A stretch of DNA of 64,000 nucleotides, taken from the IMG/VR virus record IMGVR_UViG_3300028888_000055; one strand, written 5' to 3'. Positions within the stretch are counted from its first letter, which is position 1. Every line of letters starts with the position of its first letter. The DNA is from a virus (taxonomy: Duplodnaviria; Caudoviricetes). The position numbers and the translations under genes were made by a program. Shown piece by piece: positions 1 through 59,725 of the stretch. Below the pieces are notes generated by a model, which was not told the DNA's origin, did no database searches, and saw only the letters and a list, made by a program, of their open reading frames with translations.

Positions 1-2
1 AT

Positions 3-1319
3 GATTTTAATGTACTGCAATTTCTATTAGATGATGAGTATAGAGCAATCGCCATTGATGCTTATGACTTAATAAAAGGTACTATTAATATTCTTGATAT
101 AATATCGAGAGTACCACATTTCCAGGCAATGATAGACTCTAGTAGCGTTGACTTTTACCTATTCAGTAGTATTAGTTCTGTATTTAATTTAATGTACAAT
201 ATTTCACATGATCTATTATAGAGAGGTGAATTAAGTTCATTATCTGTTAAACAAAGAACTGACTTTACTAGAGACCTTTAGAACTTCATACAATCTCAAA
301 TTGCTTTAAAATACTTCAAAGATAGAAATGTCAAAATTCCAATTGGTGAAGGAAATTAGGTAATTAATAAAGACGGTGCATTGGTAACTATTGAGCAGGA
401 AGAAGCTTTAGATTTAGGAACAGTAGAAGGACAAGCCGCCTTTAAGCTTTGGATGGAACAATCTGTATTACCAAATTTAAGGTTAGGAGTTGTAGAAGAC
501 GGAAATGATGAGTATATTCAACGTTCATTATTAACTAACAAATTCATACAAGCTCTTACTTTGAATTCTACTACTAGAACAACAACTGGAGACGAAAAAG
601 GTGTTATATCCTTACCTATTAATATGTCCGTATCGACAAGTGAATATAATGAGAATATGTTCGTATCGTATCTTACTGACTTTAATAAGTTAAAAGGTGT
701 AACTTATAATGGTATTCCAGTACAATCTTTATTCTTCTGGTATAATTTAATTGTAAATAGAAATGTCCAAAGCCGAGATGCTTTAACTAAAATATTTAAA
801 TCTGCTATTAGAGATAATAGAGGGGATAATGATATTAATGATTACTTTAAGTATGTTGGCGACATGGATAAAAGACAATTATTCTCTTTAGAAGACTTCA
901 ATATGCAAGATTTATTATTATCTTGTGCTCCAAAAGTCACTAGAGCATGGCTAGTAAATGAGAAGTATGAGTCTAATTAGTATCCTACATTTGTGAAAAG
1001 CTGGGATTCCGACACTGGCACATATAAAATATATAAACTAGATCCTACTACTTTCGCGAAGCGAGGCGGGGATGAAATGGATGAACTAGCTTATGCTCAG
1101 ATGGAGGACGCAGGAGAATTAGACTATGAAACCAACGAATTTACTCCTGTAGGATATAGAGAATATACTATAAGTCCAAGTATGAGTAAAGCAGAAATGG
1201 CTAATTTATATCCATTCTTGCCTTATAATTCTCGAGAATTCAAGACAAAGGATGTAATAAATCAATTAAGTAGATTATTTAAACAAGGTAAAATTTTTAT
1301 TTATAACGATTGTGGCTAA
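3..1319 (+). CDS. C-terminal part of a giant crAss-like virion/ejection protein (possibly virion RNA polymerase-associated); TAG=Gln; 5' truncated by the window
   Basis: Frame 3 is open from the window start to TAA at 1317-1319 when TAG is read through. Track ORFs 381-980 and 993-1319 are in this frame. Ends ...KIFIYNDCG. No RNAP motif is visible in this part. Confidence 0.8.
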
Positions 1320-4206
1320 TAATTGTATTCCAAAAATAATAATAGGTGGCTAGGAATTTGTTGGTTCCTAGCTGCCTGCCCATTCGTCTCTTACACAAAT
1401 ATTGTAGAGCGTATTGGCTAATGGTAATAATGCTTCAGAATTAAATCAAATATTATCTGATATTTCTAGTCTTGATTAGGTGTAGATAACTTCATTTGAT
1501 CAAGTTGCTTAGATAATACCAGGTAATGCTACGTTTATGGATATATCTAAAAAGATACATTCTGAAGGACGTATATATTCTCCAGTAAATAAGTCTATAG
1601 AAGAAGCTATAAGTATTATAACTAAATATGGTAACTACCCAAAAATATTATGGTTAAATGGTGATATAAAGTTAAATGGGGCTTCTATTCCTAATGTCAT
1701 TATTACACCAAATGGAGAAGATATTATAGTTCTTAAATCGAATGATCCTTTTGAGATAAATATAGCATTATAGGAATACATTTATAAAACATTACTATCT
1801 ACAAGAGCAAGAAGTTTCTTGAGTCTTATAGAGACCGCTATGGGTAAGAAAATTACTCAAAAAAATAAAGACTAGATTGATTTAGTATTTAAAAGAAATC
1901 CTGCTATAGCTGCTATAGGAACTAAAGAAGAATATAGACAGTATTTATTATCTATATTCCCAGAATCTGTAGAAACTTCAATCTATTGGCATGGTTCAAA
2001 TTCTGATTTCTCAGAAGGATTTTAGAGTGCACAAAAAACTGAAGGTAGCGGCGCACCTGAAGTATAGGATAGAAATGATATGTATTTTAATAAATAGGCA
2101 TATGCTTCTATTCAATATGTAAATGGTCAAAACAGAACTGCACCAGCAGACGTTAATGGTTTTGCTCATTGGAATAAATTATATTGGGAATTAAAAGAAA
2201 TCCTTTCTAATGGTGTATCTGGAGAAAACTGGAGAAATCAAGTAATTGATACAAGTACTATTAGAAAAGAAATTCCTAATAAAAGAGGTGAATTTGATCC
2301 TAAAAGAAAAAAAGGTAAGACTCTAGACTAGAGAAAACGAGACTATGGCTATGGGGAAGGAGATGAAGAGACTGAAGCTTTCTTCAGAGAAGTTTTTGGT
2401 ATTGAAATAAATGACCCAAATAAAAAAATAACTTTTAATGAATGGGTTGCTAAAAATAAAAAAATCTTCAAAGATATGGAGGGAGAGGCCCCTGGGCTCT
2501 ATCCAGTAATTCTCAATATCAAGAAACCTATTAAAGAAGAAGGTTAGGATACCTATTATGAAGGTCACCGTAGACTATTTACTAAAGCAGCTAAAAAAGG
2601 TAATGATGCTATTATAGGAACTCATACAAAAAATGAATTTGGGTCTGATGTAGTGGTAATGCTCAATCTTGAAGACAATCCAGAAGAGAGAGTACATTTT
2701 TTAGGAACTACAGCAGATTTAGAAGCATTTGCAGCTTGGAAACGACAAAATCAACTTTCAACTGATAATATAATTGAAAAAATACTACGAGATCCATTTA
2801 TAAATGAATTTCTCGATTCTGAAGGTTCTGCTGTTACTGATGGCTTTGCTACTCTTAGAGATGAACTACAAAGTGTAGTACATCAAGCAATTAACGACGA
2901 GATTAGTACAGAACACTACTTTAGATTAGAGAAAGTAATTAGTGGAGGGTAGACTGGAGTAGATACTGCAGGTGTTACTATAGCAAATGAATTAGGATTC
3001 GCTACTGGAGGAACTGTACCCGTAAATGGTTTAAGAGAAAGATTAAACGGTCAGCCTAATAACATATCTAAAGAAGATATGGTTAAATTCGGATTTGAAG
3101 AAATACAAGAAGTCACTGCTTCAAATCCTTATACTGACAGAACGAGAGCCAATGTGGAAAATTCAGATGGTACTGTTTATATCTTAGCCAGTAAATATCT
3201 TGCTAGTGGAGAAGAATCCGCTGGTTATAAAGCTACTTCAAAAGCTGCTATGGAACTTGGAAAACCCTTTGCAGTTGTGCATAGTGCGTAGGAATTAAGA
3301 GAATTTGTTATAAATAATAACATTAGAGTATTAAATATTGCAGGTTCTAGAGAAAGTTCATATTCTCCTGGGGATGCAGAAAGAATAAACGGCATTATTA
3401 AAGAAGGCCTTACTGCACAACCTTGGATAACAAAAAGTAGAGTCGAATCTTCTTTAGTTACTTCAAAATACCCAAGTGCAAACTACAACACTGATAATAT
3501 GAGTGTTTCTGATGTGCAAGATGCTCTTAATAATCGCTCTGCTAATATGATTTCTTACTATGGAAAAAATAAAGCTAATCCATCTATTCCAGGCAATACT
3601 TTTGAGGCAATTTTAACTCGTCAAAGGACTGCCACTACTAGGTTTAAAAACTTATATTTTTGGACACAAAAAATAAAGGTTGGCGATATTGTGGCTTTTA
3701 AGAAAAGCAAAGATAAAGATTCTAGTGTAGTTTTTGTAAAAATAAAAAGTGTTAATCCTATAGACGAGGATGCTAATCCTTCTGAATGGTCGAGCAAGGA
3801 AGGATGGTCATAGGCTTATTTTAAGGATGTAGTCATTCCAAAAATTAGAGCAGCAAAAAAGGAGGGCCTGCAACCAGTGTAGATAGAATATGAATATGTA
3901 GGAGCTATTATTAATGATGACTTAAAGAATGTTTAGGGGACGAGTGAAACTACTTTTACAATATAGACTCCTATAGGGCCTCTTGAATTTAGAAACCAAA
4001 AGGATTTAGCAAATAAGTTAATAACTATTAGAAAACAAATAGTTGGAACATAGAATTAGGAAGCCGAAGAAAAACTATAGAATGATATGAATATGTATGC
4101 CCAAGCTATAGTTACAGGTATTCTTCCTAGTGGAAGGGATATAAATAATGATCCTGTCGAGATGTAGACTTTTATAAATACTGTTATCAATGACGGAAAC
4201 TGTTAA
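1312..4206 (+). CDS. Polyvalent virion protein (~964 aa, TAG=Gln) with ADP-ribosyltransferase-like, SLOG/YpsA (MoCo-carrier-like) and ASCH-like domains
   Basis: GTG at 1312 (MANNCIPK), frame 1 open apart from TAGs up to TAA at 4204-4206. Motifs: IGTKEEYRQYLLSIFPES..IYWHGS (ART-PolyVal-like); VISGG(TAG)TGVD..RTRANVENSDGT..VLNIAGSRES (SLOG); NTFEAILTRQRTATTR..KVGDIVAF..WSSKEGWS (ASCH). Confidence 0.85.
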
Positions 4207-4211
4207 TAAAT

Positions 4212-6149
4212 ATGGCTTAGTGTATAAATAAATTAGAAGTAGAATATCAACAATTATTAGAAATGACAGGGCTAACGCCTGCAGAATTGGACTTATACAT
4301 AGGAGAATACTATCAAAAGAATGGGAAGTGCCCCACTGTAGATAGATTCCTACGTACAACTAATACTACAGCGGCTTTTGTCAAGGAATATAATTTAAAG
4401 AAATGTGGCAAAGGATGGATAGCATAGGACGACAGACCTATTGATATTCCATTGATTAACTCTAAATACCGAGATATTGAAGTGTCCGCAATAACCTCTA
4501 ATATTAGCCCTACTGTTTACATGGCCAAAGTAAGAGCTATTTAGAATAGAGATTTGGACACACCTACAACTTATTTATTACCAACCACCATTGAACAAGT
4601 AAAAGAGCTAGAACCCGAGGTGCAGCTCGAGGATGGTTCCTACCTTTATAGGCAAGGTAACAGAATTTATAGAACAAATTGTAAAGTTACTAGTCCTCTT
4701 TTACTTACATATTATCCAGACTTTGCCACTTATTCGGAAGCTCTTGCAGCTCCAACAGAAAAACCCAGTTACGATAAAAGTGTAATTGACATCATTAGAT
4801 TAAATAGAGGTAAGTTATTTAATGACCAGTATGTAAAAGTAAATACTTCATTAAATTTACCAGGAGAAATTAAGTTCTACAAGAACTTTAATTATCCAGT
4901 ATTTGAATTCAATGATGTTGTTGGAGACCGCGACTATTATATAAATTCTTTAGGAGTTTTATTAATAAATCCTGATGCTGTAAATAGTGATTTAGATTTA
5001 GAAAGAATTATTTTATAGGCAGAAGGCTTTGATGACTCTCAGATCGAAACTATTTTATCTGGATTATCTAATTATGAAACTTATGAAGCTATTAGACAAA
5101 CAGATAATAGTTACTTATTACATAAGGTTAATAATGGAGTAGATATTAATAGTGTAGCTAATACTATTTCTCCAAAAACCCAAAATAATGGAGAAAATCA
5201 TCTAGGACAAATTCTTGATAGGCTAGAAGAGTTATATGGAATAGGGTTCATAAGAACTAGTACAGCAGAATTGCAGTCTAACAATTTTACTGCTATTATA
5301 CCTGATGCTACTAGAGTAAACGCGTTTATATATTAGGGACAAATTTATATAAACATGGATAATGCTACATCTGATTCACCTATCCATGAGTTAGCTCATA
5401 TATTATTAGGAGCTCTCAGAAGTACTAATCCTAATATATATTATGCCTTAGTACAATCAGTTGAACAACTTCCAGATTATCAACAAAGACTTCAATAGTT
5501 CCCTAACCGAACTAGACAAGATGTCAATGAAGAAATCTTCGTAGACTTGTTTGCAAAACATTATACTGATGGTTTAAATCTTGAAATTGATTAGAACACT
5601 ATGGATGATATGGAATATGAAATTGAGCATAATATAGACTCAGGCATATTCCCAAATAAAAGTACTACTACAATAAATTTAGCAGAACTTATGAATAAAT
5701 CCTTGAATGAAATAATGGATGTATTTGGAACTGCTATTAACAGGGATACTTTAATAAAAGCTTATAATAGCGATACTGCATATTGCCGTACAATATCTAA
5801 TATAAAAGAAGAGCTTTTAAAGAGAAAAGAACTGGAAGAATATTGCTCTGATGGAGGACATCATGCTCAAAGAATGATTAACGCTTACCATAGAGGTCAG
5901 AACTCTAATCCTGCTAAATTTTTAAAAGGTCGTATGGCAGATAATGCGAAGGATTTAGATACATTCATAGAGAATGTTAAAAGATCTTTCCATGAAACAG
6001 AAAGGGGGACCTTTGATGTTAATGGAAGATTTTATAAAAATCCAGATTCCTCTTACGCACAAAATGCTAGAGGGGCAAAAGATATAAAGGAGCTCTGGAA
6101 TGAATACAGATCTTATGTAATGTAGAACTATCCAAACACAAATATATAA
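4212..6149 (+). CDS. Virion protein with zincin metallopeptidase domain (~645 aa, TAG=Gln)
   Basis: ATG at 4212 (MA(Q)CINKLEVEY) to TAA at 6147-6149, joining track ORFs 4554 and 5601. NAFIY(Q)GQIYIN..DSPIHELAHILL (HExxH at 5385-5399) and downstream NEEIFV. Confidence 0.85.
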
Positions 6150-6155
6150 TAAATT

Positions 6156-9100
6156 ATGAGTACATGTGTATATAAACTTGGAGGAAGAGTATTTGGTTCA
6201 GAATTGGACTTGGATAACTTCTTATATAATTATCTTGATTCTTTTGATGCGGATGCTATACCTGATCTTGTATTTAGTACACGATCTCCAAAAGCTAACG
6301 TACTTTCAAAAAAATTAGACGATAAAGCAGAGGAGTTAAAGGCTAACGTAGTTAAAGCTGCGAAATTAAGAGCTAGAAGAGACGAATTCGTTAGTGAAGC
6401 AGAAAGCGCATTAATAGCAAATTATTATGGTGCTAATATGGTATTATCTACTGTAGAAATTGCTCCAAATACAAGAATAACTCCAGAATTCATTCGCTCC
6501 AAATTAAAGGCTAACTTATTTAATTAGTGGACTGGACAACCCTCTGCCAACTCAACAGGTATTAGCAAAAATATTGCTGATATTTTAGCAGCAGCGGGTT
6601 ATACAGAAAACGGAAGACAATTAAAAGCTGGAGATATTATTACAGAATAGACATATGCTGGCAATTCTACTAACATAGAGGATATCTTTCCTAAATGTAA
6701 TGATATATTTGAAAATTATGTGTGGCCATATTGGTCAGGTTTAGGAAAAGTAGGTACTGCTATGCACCGTGTGGCAGAAATGTTCTGGTTAGGAGAAAGT
6801 ACTATTTCTATATTAAATGATTCAGTTGTTATAACTGGAGATGATAGTTTTACTGGTGATTTATCCAGAGTTTCTCCTGTTCTTTCTAATGATGCTATAC
6901 ATGAGTTTCTTACATATTTAAATAGTTTAAAAACTGTTTTACAGGCTAGACATGGAAAAAACTGTAAGTTTAGACCTGAGTATCCAGTAGTTGCTAAAAG
7001 CTCTCTCCCAGTAAAAGGAAATCACAAGGCTCATATTATAGGTATTATTGACTTGGTAGTAGAAGACGAATAGGGAATACCTCATATCTATGACTATAAG
7101 ACATCTGATAAGGATATGGACGAGTGGGGCGCAATTAAGAGAAGATCTTATATGGCCCAGTTAGCTTTATATAGACGAATTCTTGAATCATATGGCATAG
7201 ATGTAGAAGGTACTACCCTAGGAATTTTACCTATAAATTTATCATAGTATAATATAACGAGAGATGGGTCACCAAGAGTTAACGGTATAGAATGTCCTAA
7301 AGATGCGAGAGGTCTTCCTTATATTGAAGATCTTTCTAGAGAATAGGCTCTACAACCTTTAGGAGAATTAACTGCAAAAATTAATAAGTTAGTATATGCT
7401 GAAAATCAGCTCGAAGCTTTACCTACAAACTTTATTCGAAATATTGAAACTCATTTCAAAGAATTCTTTCCAAGTTATACCTTTTAGAAAGAATACGATG
7501 ATGCTGTAAAAGCAGGTATAGAAGAAGAAATAAAAGAAAATTTGAATAATGGTAAGTATATGTTCCCAAAGATTCCAGGTGAAAAAGAGCGTATGGAATA
7601 TGATAAGGAAGAAATCTCTTAGCATATGGAAGAATTTTATAAAAAATATGTTACTTAGAATGACATAGCACAAAAGCGTAACATATTTTATATAAAACAG
7701 GCTATTAGGGAACAAGACCCTGCTCGACTTCCAGCAGTATCTTCTATTAACTATGGAGATAAGGGTGAATGGTTTATTCCAATGTTCTCTAGATACTGTA
7801 ATGGTTCATGGGAACCTGTAAATAATAGTGCTCTCGAGAGCTTAAATATATTAGCTTTAAGAAATAAAATTTCTGGGCAAGTTAACTTCTTTATTTTAAG
7901 CGGATATGACTTGAGTCGTAAGGTTAAAATGAAAGAGGGTAATACAGTTCTAGGATAGCACGTTAATGATATTACACCACAACATGCTGGCGTTATCCCA
8001 CTAGAAGCTGATTTAGGAAATATTGAGTTAATGAAAGCTATGGTAGCTATTAATTTGGCATCTAGATCGGTTCTTCGTAAAGGTGATAAGCTCGGCGAAG
8101 TAATGGCGATAAATATTTGGAATTAGCAAGGTAGAACTACCTCAAATAAGCAATTAATGGATAACTTTAATGCTTTATGTGATTACTCTCAAACAACTAT
8201 GCCTAATAATTTCGCAAGTGGTAAAATAGAAGTAGCTTCTGCAACTCAAAAGGTTGCTACTACTATGCTTGAATTAGGATCGTTAGAAAAAGTAGGAGTT
8301 TTGAATCGTATATATTCTAAATATGAAAAGAATTTAGTGGCTTTAGATATTGAATATAATACATTAAATAGACTTCGTAGAGAACTAGAGGATGCTTATC
8401 CAGATTTAGCAGAAGGAGAAGTAGACATTAATACTCCACAAGGAGCAATGTATTCTACTATTATGACTGCTATTTCTGAAATGAATAATGCTTATTATAC
8501 TCAGGAATTAAGGGACAGTTCTTTTGTATAGCTCAATGTTAATACCCCTGAAATGATGAAGTCTTCTAATTTAAGAAGGTTAAGAGCATTAACTAACAAT
8601 GCATTCTAGAGATTACGTGATAGAATGAATAGAGAAGCTGCCGAATGGAGAATTCATTATGATAAATTAATAAAAGCTAAAGGTTATAGTAGAGGTGAAA
8701 AGTGGATTACTGATAATGATTCTCGTCTTTACGAAAATATGATTATTCATAATAAAGAATAGGGTATTCTTAAATTCAAGAATCCTTGGGATAGAACAAC
8801 GGATTTAACTGATGAAGAAAGAGAATTCTTGAAGTGGTATTTGGATAAGTAGGATCAACTAAGATTTGAAGAGGATAGTACAGAAGAAAGTCGCTAGTTA
8901 AGAAGAGCAGATTCAAATAGTCAATATTTTGATGTTCCTTTAATGGAATCTAAAGGACAGGAAAAAATATTGAATGGTAGAACTAAAGGTTTAGTTTCAT
9001 GGTTTAAGCGTACTATACAATGGTGGAGACATCCAATTCAGAATGCTAAACGCCTAGAGGCAAAAGTTTTAACAAATGAAAAAGCCGATGAAGCAAAGAA

Positions 9101-10916
9101 AACAGCACAAGCTTTTAGAATTATGGATGTGTTCGAGGAAAGCGAAAACGAAGTAACAAGAACTAAACTCCTAAAAGAACACGATCTTGACTATTTTACT
9201 ACAAGTGTTGAAAAAATATTCTACGCTTATTCTTTCTCTAAGATTAGAAAGAGTGTATTGGACTCTTACATGCCAGTGTTAAAAGGTATGTATGTAATGC
9301 TAAAGACAAATGGTATGTTAAATAACATTGGTATAGAACAAATGGAAAAATACCTGGTAAATTATGTTTCAGCAAAGATAATGAATCGTTCATTAGTATC
9401 AGACGAATATAAAGGTTTAGCCCATGTTATGAGTAAACTTAGGAATGTAACAAGTGAAGTTACACTGGGTATTTCTCCAAAAGCATTCTTATTCTAGCTT
9501 ATCGAAGGTGTATGGAAAAACAATTCTCGTTCTATTATAAAGCCTATGGGTCTTAATTAGTTCGGACACCAAGAATATAAGGACGCTTTGGTATGGCTTC
9601 TTGGAGATGCGAAGAATCACTTTAAAGTAGTATCAATGGGAGAACTTATTAACGAACAATATGGTATAAATGACCAGGATATTAACGTGTTAGCAGATAG
9701 ATTGCGTGAAGGACAAGATGCTTTAACATTTTAGGGCAAATTAATGTGGATGGTTAGTGCTCCAGATTATATGAACCGTATGGCTATATTTGTTGCTTAG
9801 ATGAAAGCAGATGGTTGTTTTGATGCTCACACAATGAACGATGATGGATTTACAATGTCATATGATTGCTCTAAAGATTCTCGCTTTAATAAACTTAAGT
9901 TTAATAGAAAGAGTAGAGAAGACGTTGATTCTAGAGATCCAGAATATCTTAAGTAGCTAGCTATGTATAAGAGAATGGTAGATGAATTCAATGCAGAAGG
10001 TTACAAAATTGTAGACCCTAATACTGGATTGGAAAGAAGCATGACTTATAATGATAAATTGCCTAGAGCATATACTAATAGAGAAGCAAGAAGTATAAAA
10101 TCATTGGCCGATGCATTATATGGTTATTACAACCATGAAGACTAGTACCTATTAAAGAGTTACTTATTAGGTGCTTTATTTACACAATTTAGAACTTATT
10201 GGTCATCTCTTAAGAATAGATGGTGGTTAGATGGAGGTATTTACAGTCAAGGCCATTGGGAACATATGAAAAATTCAAAAGGTGAATTGATGTATAAAAA
10301 AATAATCAATGAAGGTCAAGAAAACGAAAGAGTAATTCTTATTCCAGAAAGTCAATTAAATGGCGAAATTCTAGAACCATACATGGATTGGAAAGGCTCT
10401 TATTAGGAAGGGTATTGTTAGACAGTCTTAAGTCTCTTTAAAGATATGTTTAGTCCAAATGAAGATGACTTGTCTATGTCTGAAAGAGCTAGACAATGGT
10501 GGAAAGGGAAAGAAGGTATCGATGATACTGTTGCCTACACAAGAAGAGCCAATATGAAGTTAATGATTCACGATTTATCAGTATTCTGCTTAATATAGTT
10601 AATATTTGGTACAATCATTATGCAATTGTTCAAAGACCAGAAAAAAGCAGACAAGACCAAAAATCTAACTGCTATGGAAAAAGTATTAAGATCTGCAGAA
10701 AGAGTAGGACTTTATTCTATGATTTAGTCTGGCTCTGACCTTGGAATAGGAGATGTCTTCTCACCAATGACCGATTGGACTCCTCCTAGCTTTGCAGTAG
10801 CTAAAGAAGCTTGGAAAGACATGGGAGAAGTAATGACTGGAGATTAGAATTTCTTTAAAGCAGTGGTTGATAACGTAGGTTTCTTACGTCAAACTAAGAC
10901 TTTATGGTCACTTTGA
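6156..10916 (+). CDS. Giant virion/ejection protein (~1586 aa, TAG=Gln) with PD-(D/E)xK (AddB/Cas4-like) nuclease domain
   Basis: Track ORFs 6156, 6720, 8157, 8943 and 9963 are all in one frame and end in TAG. The real stop is TGA at 10914-10916, just before a terminator. Motifs: GTAMHRVAE..EYPV..GIIDLVVEDE(Q)GIPHIYDYKTS..QLALYRRIL. Confidence 0.85.
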
Positions 10917-10928
10917 TTAAATACATAG

Positions 10929-10977
10929 AAAAAAAAATGGGCCAACACTCCGAAGAGTGTTGACCCGTTTTTTATTT
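10929..10977. terminator. Bidirectional intrinsic terminator between convergent late (+) and early (-) blocks
   Basis: A-tract, ATGGGCCAACACTC-CGAA-GAGTGTTGACCCGT hairpin, then T-tract. Confidence 0.9.
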
Positions 10978-10979
10978 AA

Positions 10980-11390
10980 TTAATCATCGATTGTAAAAGT
11001 AATTGCCTTTTTACTTTTTGATTCTTCTTTAGGAAGATGAACATTTAAAATACCATTCTTAAGATCTACTTTAACATTCTGATAATCAATATCATCATTT
11101 AAAGCTATCTTCCTTTCACATTTCTCAGAAAAGAATTCACTGTTATCTTCATAACTTTCATCTTTACTGCGTTCGCCAGAAACTATCAATATATTGTCCT
11201 TTATTGCTACCTTCAGCTCTTCTTTACTAAAACCAGGCACCATTACTTGAACTGTATAGGAATCATCTTCCTCTTTCATTCTAACAGGTACAATATAGTC
11301 AGTTATCTCGCATTTAGGTAAATTAAGTTCTCCAAATTTGCTAAGAGAATCTCTTAAATAGTTTTGAATTTCTTTAAAAGAATTACTCAT
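10980..11390 (-). CDS. Small heat shock protein (Hsp20/alpha-crystallin)
   Basis: VPGFSKEELKVAIKDNILIVSGER..KNGILNVHLPK. Confidence 0.9.
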   Translation of the reverse strand: MSNSFKEIQNYLRDSLSKFGELNLPKCEITDYIVPVRMKEEDDSYTVQVMVPGFSKEELKVAIKDNILIVSGERSKDESYEDNSEFFSEKCERKIALNDDIDYQNVKVDLKNGILNVHLPKEESKSKKAITFTIDD

Positions 11391-59339: not shown

Positions 59340-59363
59340 AATTTTATTTATTTTATTTGTTAG

Positions 59364-59725
59364 TGGAGTCGGAGGGATTCGAACCCTCGTCCGCGAATGT
59401 TACAATATCAACTTTCTACATGTTTATTTCATTCAATAGCTTAGTGGTAACAGCTAAATGAACAACTTCTGTTACCATATATCCTAGGTAAGATTTCATC
59501 ACATTACTAAGGCCCCTTATGTGATATATTGTTGTAACGATGCATTGTAAGTTCTCCAGTCCAACAATAAACTTTTGAACCAATGTCACGATGCTTACGC
59601 AGCAGCGCGATACGAATAATAATTTTCGCCAGTTAAAAGGAAGTGTTTGAAAGTTTAAAGAGTTATTTTCAACCTCTACATGCTTATCAACACCATATAC
59701 AAGCCGTCAAATCCAAGTCGACCCC
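59364..59725 (-). ncRNA. ssrA: tmRNA, tag peptide (A)GENYYSYRAAA
   Basis: 5' GGGGTCGACTTGGATTTGAC; 3' GGACGAGGGTTCGAATCCCTCCGACTCCA with G3:U70; TAACT-GGC resume context; tag ORF 59630-59595 ends in TAA. Confidence 0.95.

Follow-up and report, generated by a model that had tools for sequence, protein, structure and literature searches.

We report here that the giant proteins of the virion RNA polymerase cargo block of a crAss-like phage carry cysteines at the ends where one protein follows another, that this arrangement is conserved among related viruses far beyond chance, and that it reappears at new protein ends when a gene of the block is split. The DNA studied (the window) is the 64,000 nt of IMG/VR record IMGVR_UViG_3300028888_000055 (Caudoviricetes), and the block lies on its + strand at positions 1-10916, where it is read with TAG as a glutamine codon (below). 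We consider a head-to-tail disulfide chain of the cargo proteins to be the best explanation of the pattern and, judging from the sequences and from analogy with one cyanophage, we lean toward it. The window contains the following members of the block and the parts of them that matter most here:

3 to 1319, + strand, open at its 5' end: P1, the last 438 amino acids (aa) of a giant virion RNA polymerase, read with TAG as Gln; it ends with YNDCG before the stop codon, and the codon of its penultimate residue, Cys, is at 1311-1313.
1312 to 4206, + strand: P2, an accessory cargo protein of 964 aa that starts at a GTG codon, beginning (M)ANNC and ending DGNC.
4212 to 6149, + strand: P3, a 645-aa zincin-like protein beginning MAQC, in which a TAG codon, read as Gln, encodes residue 3 and the Cys4 codon is at 4221-4223.
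5844 to 5846, + strand: Cys545 of P3, in the sequence LEEYC, internal here and aligned with the C-terminal Cys of the P3 family.
5847 to 6146, + strand: the lineage-specific 100-aa extension of P3, present only in its closest relatives (P0006 and P0007).
6156 to 10916, + strand: P4, the last member of the block, 1586 aa, beginning MSTC (Cys4 codon 6165-6167) and having no C-terminal Cys.

A preliminary description of this DNA, made from the sequence alone, had drawn attention to these termini (NDCG at the end of P1, MANNC and DGNC at the two ends of P2, MAQC at the start of P3 and MSTC at the start of P4), and all of them are correct to the base in the frames that read TAG as Gln. The two Cys of P2 are its residue 5 (1324-1326) and its last residue, 964 (4201-4203), and it has no others; its GTG start codon shares two bases with the TGT Cys codon of P1 (tGTGgcTAA). 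The same description held that Cys is otherwise scarce in these proteins, and for the four together this is so, since they have 20 Cys in 3633 aa (0.55%) versus 1.71% in the 15 other large open reading frames (ORFs) of the window, but internal Cys do occur in P3 and P4, whose totals are 6 and 10, respectively.

Related blocks were collected by a search with a P4 alignment, which gave 75 viral loci (23-93% identity, translated with the standard code or with TAG as Gln; individual loci are given below by L numbers), and counts were made over the 61 of them that are non-identical. A junction between successive proteins was called tight if its gap is ≤15 nt, and Cys were scored in the last 4 residues of the upstream protein and the first 8 residues of the downstream protein. 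By this measure Cys is present on both sides at 129 of 132 tight junctions, where the chance expectation for both is ~4e-4 per junction (the overall Cys frequency being 0.39%). The three exceptions are two start-codon miscalls, in which MDKGC lies 5 codons in, and the extended P3 of the window. Across the loci, 0-2 residues separate the upstream Cys from the C-terminus, and the downstream Cys occupies position 2-6 as counted from the nearest Met before it. The terminal-Cys pattern is far beyond chance, and the enrichment among related phages that the preliminary description had suggested looking for is clearly present. The C-terminal Cys often lies beside acidic residues (as in EYCE, EYCD and KECLE at protein ends).

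The P3 family displays the rule especially well. Homologues 23-61% identical to P3 start with M-x(1-3)-C-I-N and end with L-K/E-E-Y-C-x(0-2); in a 24-sequence alignment (21-61% identity) C4, H392, E393, H396 and C545 are invariant, and many members have the two terminal Cys and no other. Of 23 homologues, 19 stop 0-2 residues past their equivalent of Cys545, and since that residue aligns with the family's C-terminus, LEEYC corresponds to a protein end and the 100-aa tail behind it is a recent addition; LEEYC at 5844 had been picked out as terminus-like before any homologue was compared. A shorter, 19-aa form of the extension is present in homologues P0010/11, and in L002, L009 and L010 a TTA to TAA change at codon 571 (L002 8711-8713, corresponding to window 5922-5924) shortens it, so that P3 ends there at residue 570, 25 aa past the conserved Cys, with ~72 codons remaining open behind an ATG. 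That a stop codon cuts the extension in such close relatives indicates that it is unstable in evolution. A sequence search of the Protein Data Bank (PDB) with the extension returned a glutaredoxin at E 0.31, which is not significant, and this candidate was dropped.

The pattern also has a polarity, which is best seen in a complete close relative, G001 (160,728 bp with terminal repeats; its P1 is 93% identical to that of the window), which we used to view the full block. It encodes five consecutive proteins, P0 (3298 aa), P1 (3310 aa), P2 (964 aa), P3 (645 aa) and P4 (1586 aa). The first of these, P0, has no N-terminal Cys and has a Cys 14 residues before its end; full-length P1 starts MNGQC and ends NDCG; every inner junction has Cys on both sides; and the last member, P4, lacks Cys among its final 4 residues in all 61 loci.

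Genes that are interrupted, split or fused provide natural controls. Wherever both sides of a junction lack Cys, a LAGLIDADG endonuclease gene or a ~400-nt gap adjoins it, and these inserts cut the polymerase exactly within its catalytic motif, at GSDY|DID (L003 3275-4334, and at the same place in L030, L051, L057, L058, L059, L071 and L082), which is uninterrupted in L046 and L062. The insert is probably a group I intron, and the junctions that lack Cys look like the edges of intron-type inserts and not like true protein ends. In L052 and L055, on the other hand, a variable loop of the polymerase is the site of a split, whose two new ends are ENCNG and MDKGC, whereas unsplit homologues have no Cys at that place. 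The reverse case is crAss002 gp33, in which gp50-like and gp49-like parts are fused and there is no Cys between residues 2141 and 3118. At cr108_1 gp054|gp053 (L093 11123-11412) a 290-nt gap between two giant ORFs lacks Cys on both flanks, and the ORF after it starts with TTG; this may be another intron-type split rather than a true boundary. The rule can thus serve as an aid to annotation, since it shows where proteins really end and tells intron-split genes from genuine boundaries, and it allows start codons to be corrected, for example that of crAss002 gp33.

The same rule is followed in cultured and other crassviruses, as the following proteins show:

crAss001 gp47 (2341 aa): a single Cys, at 2339.
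crAss001 gp50: Cys5 and Cys2404 of 2412 residues.
crAss001 gp49 (1349 aa): a single Cys, at 5.
phi14:2 g067: one Cys, which is the last residue.
phi14:2 g066 (the crystallized polymerase): only Cys3 and Cys2179.
phi14:2 g065: only Cys3.
crAss002 gp32: ends with FVCS.
crAss002 gp33 (L089 9270-9368): its annotated start is probably 32 codons too far upstream, and Met33 gives an MSC start.
cr4_1 and cr118_1 (Suoliviridae): a protein ending in CKGK or CKGE is followed by one starting MIC, and this position-3 Cys is the sole one in the last proteins, of 1803 and 1667 aa.

DAC15 obeys it as well. In crAss001 and DAC15 the first member is encoded on the strand opposite to the other two, and the rule therefore follows the order of the proteins and not that of the genes; the preliminary description's notion of a chain in gene order fits the window and G001 blocks but is not general. 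The 170-nt gap after crAss002 gp32 contains a hairpin and a promoter-like stretch.

Several observations identify the block to which these proteins belong. The sequence GSDYDID at residue 2228 of G001 P1 is the DxDxD catalytic motif of two-barrel RNA polymerases, and the crAss_MUZ (muzzle) families PF25731/PF25729 adjoin the same block in relatives, on contigs of 90-190 kb. From the polymerase motif in P1 and the muzzle genes beside related loci it follows that the window carries the end of the virion RNA polymerase cargo block of a large crAss-like phage. A search with crAss001 gp49 finds Crassvirales records, P4 1062-1486 matches crAss001 gp49 888-1228 weakly (hhalign E 3.6e-4, probability 37%), a weak alignment of the P4 C-terminal half covers both crAss001 gp49 and phi14:2 g065, and the P3 HExxH region matches gp49 230-360 at a weak E of 0.085; BLASTP of P1 and P4 against crAss001 gp49 and gp50 gave no significant alignment. 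Like the window block, crAss001 gp47-gp50-gp49 and phi14:2 g067-g066-g065 are giant virion proteins beside muzzle and cargo genes, with a DxDxD polymerase (g066 is gp66, the virion RNA polymerase; bioRxiv 10.1101/2020.03.07.982082), a zincin-like part and the terminal-Cys rule. The window lineage differs in having five pieces rather than three, an additional SLOG-domain protein (P2), a separate zincin (P3) and a PD-(D/E)XK nuclease domain in P4. The presence of these proteins in virions has been demonstrated by mass spectrometry in crAss001 (PMC10172136) and phi14:2 only, and it is most likely that the window phage also packs and injects its giant block proteins, the RNA polymerase included.

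What could such paired cysteines do? The disulfide itself is borrowed from cyanopodophage A4, the sole phage in which one of this kind has been seen: cryo-electron microscopy of its virion revealed a bond between gp27 Cys1715 and gp26 Cys5 inside the capsid (PMC12002296, PNAS 2025; gp26 is PDB 9k3a), with the C-terminal helix of gp27 sitting in a cleft of gp26 (PMC12002296). These two are consecutive giant ejection proteins of the pre-ejectosome, and in the A-4L genome gp27 (1717 aa, ending NPCQF) and gp26 (1114 aa, starting MSKHC) have one Cys each, so the signature is the same as that of the crassvirus block, a Cys 2 residues from the upstream C-terminus and a Cys at position 5 of the next protein. 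The motifs themselves are similar, with NPC ending proteins in L006, L021 and L029 and with MSKRC and MSKTC as starts in crAss001 and DAC15, respectively. The A4 authors view their disulfide as a local stabilizer and not as a general rule (PMC12002296). A4 has a single link between two proteins and is a 42-kb T7-like phage without a virion RNA polymerase, whereas a block of the window type would have up to four links among five proteins and include the polymerase.

By extension from A4, we infer the bond in crassviruses, the time at which it would form and its part in ejection, as follows. In the virion, each protein would be disulfide-bonded, through the Cys near its C-terminus, to the Cys at position 3-6 of its successor, and P0 through P4 would make up a single covalent thread of about 9,800 residues. 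The members would thereby be held in equal numbers and could exit through the tail one after another, and the ordered packaging or ejection suggested by the preliminary description may result; reduction in the host cytoplasm would break the bonds and release the separate proteins. Similar stretches follow the Cys at the N-termini of P2 (1324-1374, C-I-P-K-I-I-I-G-G-Q-E-F-V-G-S-Q-L) and P4 (6165-6212, C-V-Y-K-L-G-G-R-V-F-G-S-E-L); the P4 model shows it as a small β-hairpin followed by a helix (confidence score, pLDDT, 63-73), and the shared stretch may be a common docking module.

The N4-like phages (Schitoviridae) are an informative comparison, in that they too eject a virion RNA polymerase through a short tail and avoid Cys, their ejected proteins being almost Cys-free (PMC11445570). 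They differ in that their polymerase (gp50/gp71, with partners gp51-52/gp72-73) is one ~3,500-aa polypeptide with essentially no Cys, and therefore no tether is needed or possible there. Given this avoidance of Cys in the N4-like ejected proteins and its depletion in the window cargo, the Cys that are retained at the termini stand out. The virions of crAss001 do contain disulfides, in the tail (PMC10172136), and these together with the Cys-free N4-like proteins make the disulfide explanation plausible.

A number of points weigh against a disulfide chain. The preliminary description had proposed a pairing between a C-terminal Cys and the N-terminal Cys of the following protein, and this fits all of the comparative evidence, but in no crassvirus has such a bond been seen. 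Both the gut and the host cytoplasm are reducing, which bears on when the bonds would form. The rule is "near the end" and not "at the end", in that the Cys of the window P3 is followed by 100 aa, that of P0 lies 14 residues from the end, and that of crAss001 gp50 8; and the window P3 and P4 contain 4 and 9 further Cys, respectively, that could pair otherwise. The loci are related by descent, and the 129 junctions represent far fewer independent events, about six splits or insertions. Seven of the 61 loci (L059, L062, L063, L067, L069, L079 and L083) have a Cys 9 residues from the P4 end (LNCINQSLQED), and a sixth chain member sought after P4 in this subgroup was not found, the only ORF there being a 61-aa Cys-rich one with no M-x-x-C start. 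No BLASTP hit better than E 0.1 was obtained between the crassvirus proteins and A4 gp26 or gp27, nor is 9k3a (A4 gp26) among the fold matches of two P4 models; since no homology was found, the A4 precedent is an analogy. The crAss001 (PMC10172136) and phi14:2 papers make no mention of the terminal Cys of the cargo proteins, and our literature searches found no description of these Cys in crassviruses.

Could the same termini be joined, or used, in some other way? They might dock head to tail with the two Cys sharing a metal ion (Zn or Fe, together with Glu/Asp or the C-terminal carboxylate) or making some other thiol link, and the pairing pattern would fit any link between two thiols, as would the acidic residues that often flank the C-terminal Cys in the case of a metal. 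We nevertheless think this unlikely, because one Cys per terminus provides only two thiolate ligands, no conserved His or second Cys stands beside the terminal ones, and the one solved case with the same signature, A4, is a disulfide. It is also quite unlikely that the Cys form homodimers (N- to N-terminus and C- to C-terminus) or that the two terminal Cys of one protein are bonded to each other. P2, P3, phi14:2 g066 and crAss001 gp50 do have both an N- and a C-terminal Cys, but self-closure is impossible for the single-Cys proteins gp47, gp49, g067 and g065, and neither arrangement accounts for the absence of Cys at the outer ends of the first and last proteins or for the Cys on both new ends of a new split; moreover, the A4 bond joins two different proteins.

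Slightly less credible again is the idea that the terminal Cys do not bind each other at all and instead anchor the cargo to the capsid interior, to the portal or to cargo protein C1, or else mark places where the proteins are processed or modified. Many disulfides connect crAss001 tail proteins, and the crAss001 cargo protein gp45 has two Cys, but anchoring requires neither equal numbers of C- and N-terminal Cys nor Cys-free outer ends, and the signatures of inteins, lipoproteins and prenylation are absent. A split intein has no room for its halves (~100 and 35 aa) at such Cys positions, and Pfam shows no Hint family; the Cys at position 3-6, directly after the start Met, has no hydrophobic leader or L-x-x-C signal peptide (about 15-25 aa) as a lipoprotein would; and prenylation is ruled out by the position of the Cys. 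Finally, the pattern might have no function, and be due to common descent or be a by-product of overlapping stop and start signals, since two bases belong to both the Cys codon and the start codon at P1|P2 and many of the loci are closely related. This is highly improbable: most junctions have no overlap, the two Cys codons are in different frames with varying spacing, the Cys are kept even where identity is down to 21-30%, in different virus families and in a cyanophage that is unrelated, and internal Cys are depleted. All of these alternatives fit the polarity and the split and fusion data less well than does the disulfide chain.

A wider version of the disulfide chain, for which our expectation is more guarded and which we put forward as a possibility that may well prove wrong, is that phages of the whole order Crassvirales deliver their virion RNA polymerase, together with its partners, as one disulfide-stitched thread, in which terminal-Cys "couplers" admit extra payload (such as the SLOG domain of P2 and the ART-PolyVal domain of P3 relatives) and are uncoupled by the reducing cytoplasm. 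The thread would then have three pieces in crAss001 and five here, with a mass of about 1.1 megadaltons (MDa), and it would be a general, modular way to inject several phage proteins in fixed order and equal numbers. One such bond has already been published, that of A4; what would be new is a multi-link chain that includes an RNA polymerase and is conserved across an order.

No phages are more abundant in the human gut than crassviruses. They have to store about 0.7-1.1 MDa of cargo protein and pass it through a narrow tail, and the structure of crAss001 could not resolve these cargo proteins. A covalent tether, if real, would explain how the separately encoded parts of the polymerase are packed in equal numbers and leave in a fixed order, and it would explain the evolutionary tolerance of gene splits and fusions in the block.

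The window proteins contain three recognizable domains or motifs besides the polymerase:

2935 to 3363, + strand: a cpYpsA (SLOG) domain, residues 542-684 of P2 (Pfam PF12694, E 6.8e-22; PDB 3imk, E 3e-6).
5385 to 5399, + strand: HELAH, the HExxH metalloprotease-type motif of P3, whose H392, E393 and H396 are invariant in two family alignments.
6750 to 7256, + strand: a PD-(D/E)XK nuclease domain, residues 199-367 of P4 (Pfam PF12705, E 8e-8).

The PDB entry matched by the P2 domain, 3imk, is a putative molybdenum carrier protein, and homologues of P2 were found only in close relatives, apart from a 333-aa protein of L004-type loci whose first 200 aa are homologous. An ART-PolyVal (ADP-ribosyltransferase-like) insert occurs in some relatives of P3 (e.g., L006 10001-12091), and it is possible that both kinds of variable enzyme-like member, the SLOG-bearing P2 and the ART-PolyVal-bearing P3 relatives, are injected effectors. 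An AlphaFold model of P4 1-450 (pLDDT 72) matches only PD-(D/E)XK nucleases in the PDB (Foldseek E 7e-5), of the Exo5, Cas4 and AddB types. For the model of P4 780-1586 (pLDDT 73) Foldseek found nothing in the PDB at E ≤ 0.001 (best 0.26), and VIA-align gave no match above Z 5.4, which is within the noise for helical proteins. Sequence searches of the PDB with P1-P4 found only the SLOG domain of P2, profiles from the P4 and gp49 alignments retrieved nothing of relevance from the PDB, and a scan of PHROGs families gave nothing useful for P1-P4.

The reading frames above depend on the genetic code, and the evidence for it is as follows. On the + strand from 1 to 10916 translation table 11 gives short ORFs only, and table 4 (TGA as Trp) likewise leaves the region closed; reading TAG as Gln is the only code that opens it, and it yields the four abutting long ORFs P1-P4, which contain 61 in-frame TAG codons. 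In the late genes of the window phage, which is crAss-like and about 160 kb in size, TAG is read as Gln, and in close relatives TAG interchanges with CAA and CAG. The 15 large ORFs on the - strand in 10980-64000 are open under table 11, and their stop codons are TAA (12) or TGA (3) only. A megablast search of window positions 1-11000 against phage records gave no match. No suppressor tRNA was found in the window, where the tRNAs are Arg-TCT, Gly-TCC and two Met-CAT. The window also contains the following gene:

59361-59725, - strand: a full-length transfer-messenger RNA (tmRNA) gene (Rfam RF00023, 133 bits), with the ARAGORN tag peptide GENYYSYRAAA.

This tmRNA gene resides in a phage that recodes a stop codon, and it might have a bearing on ribosome rescue during the code switch.

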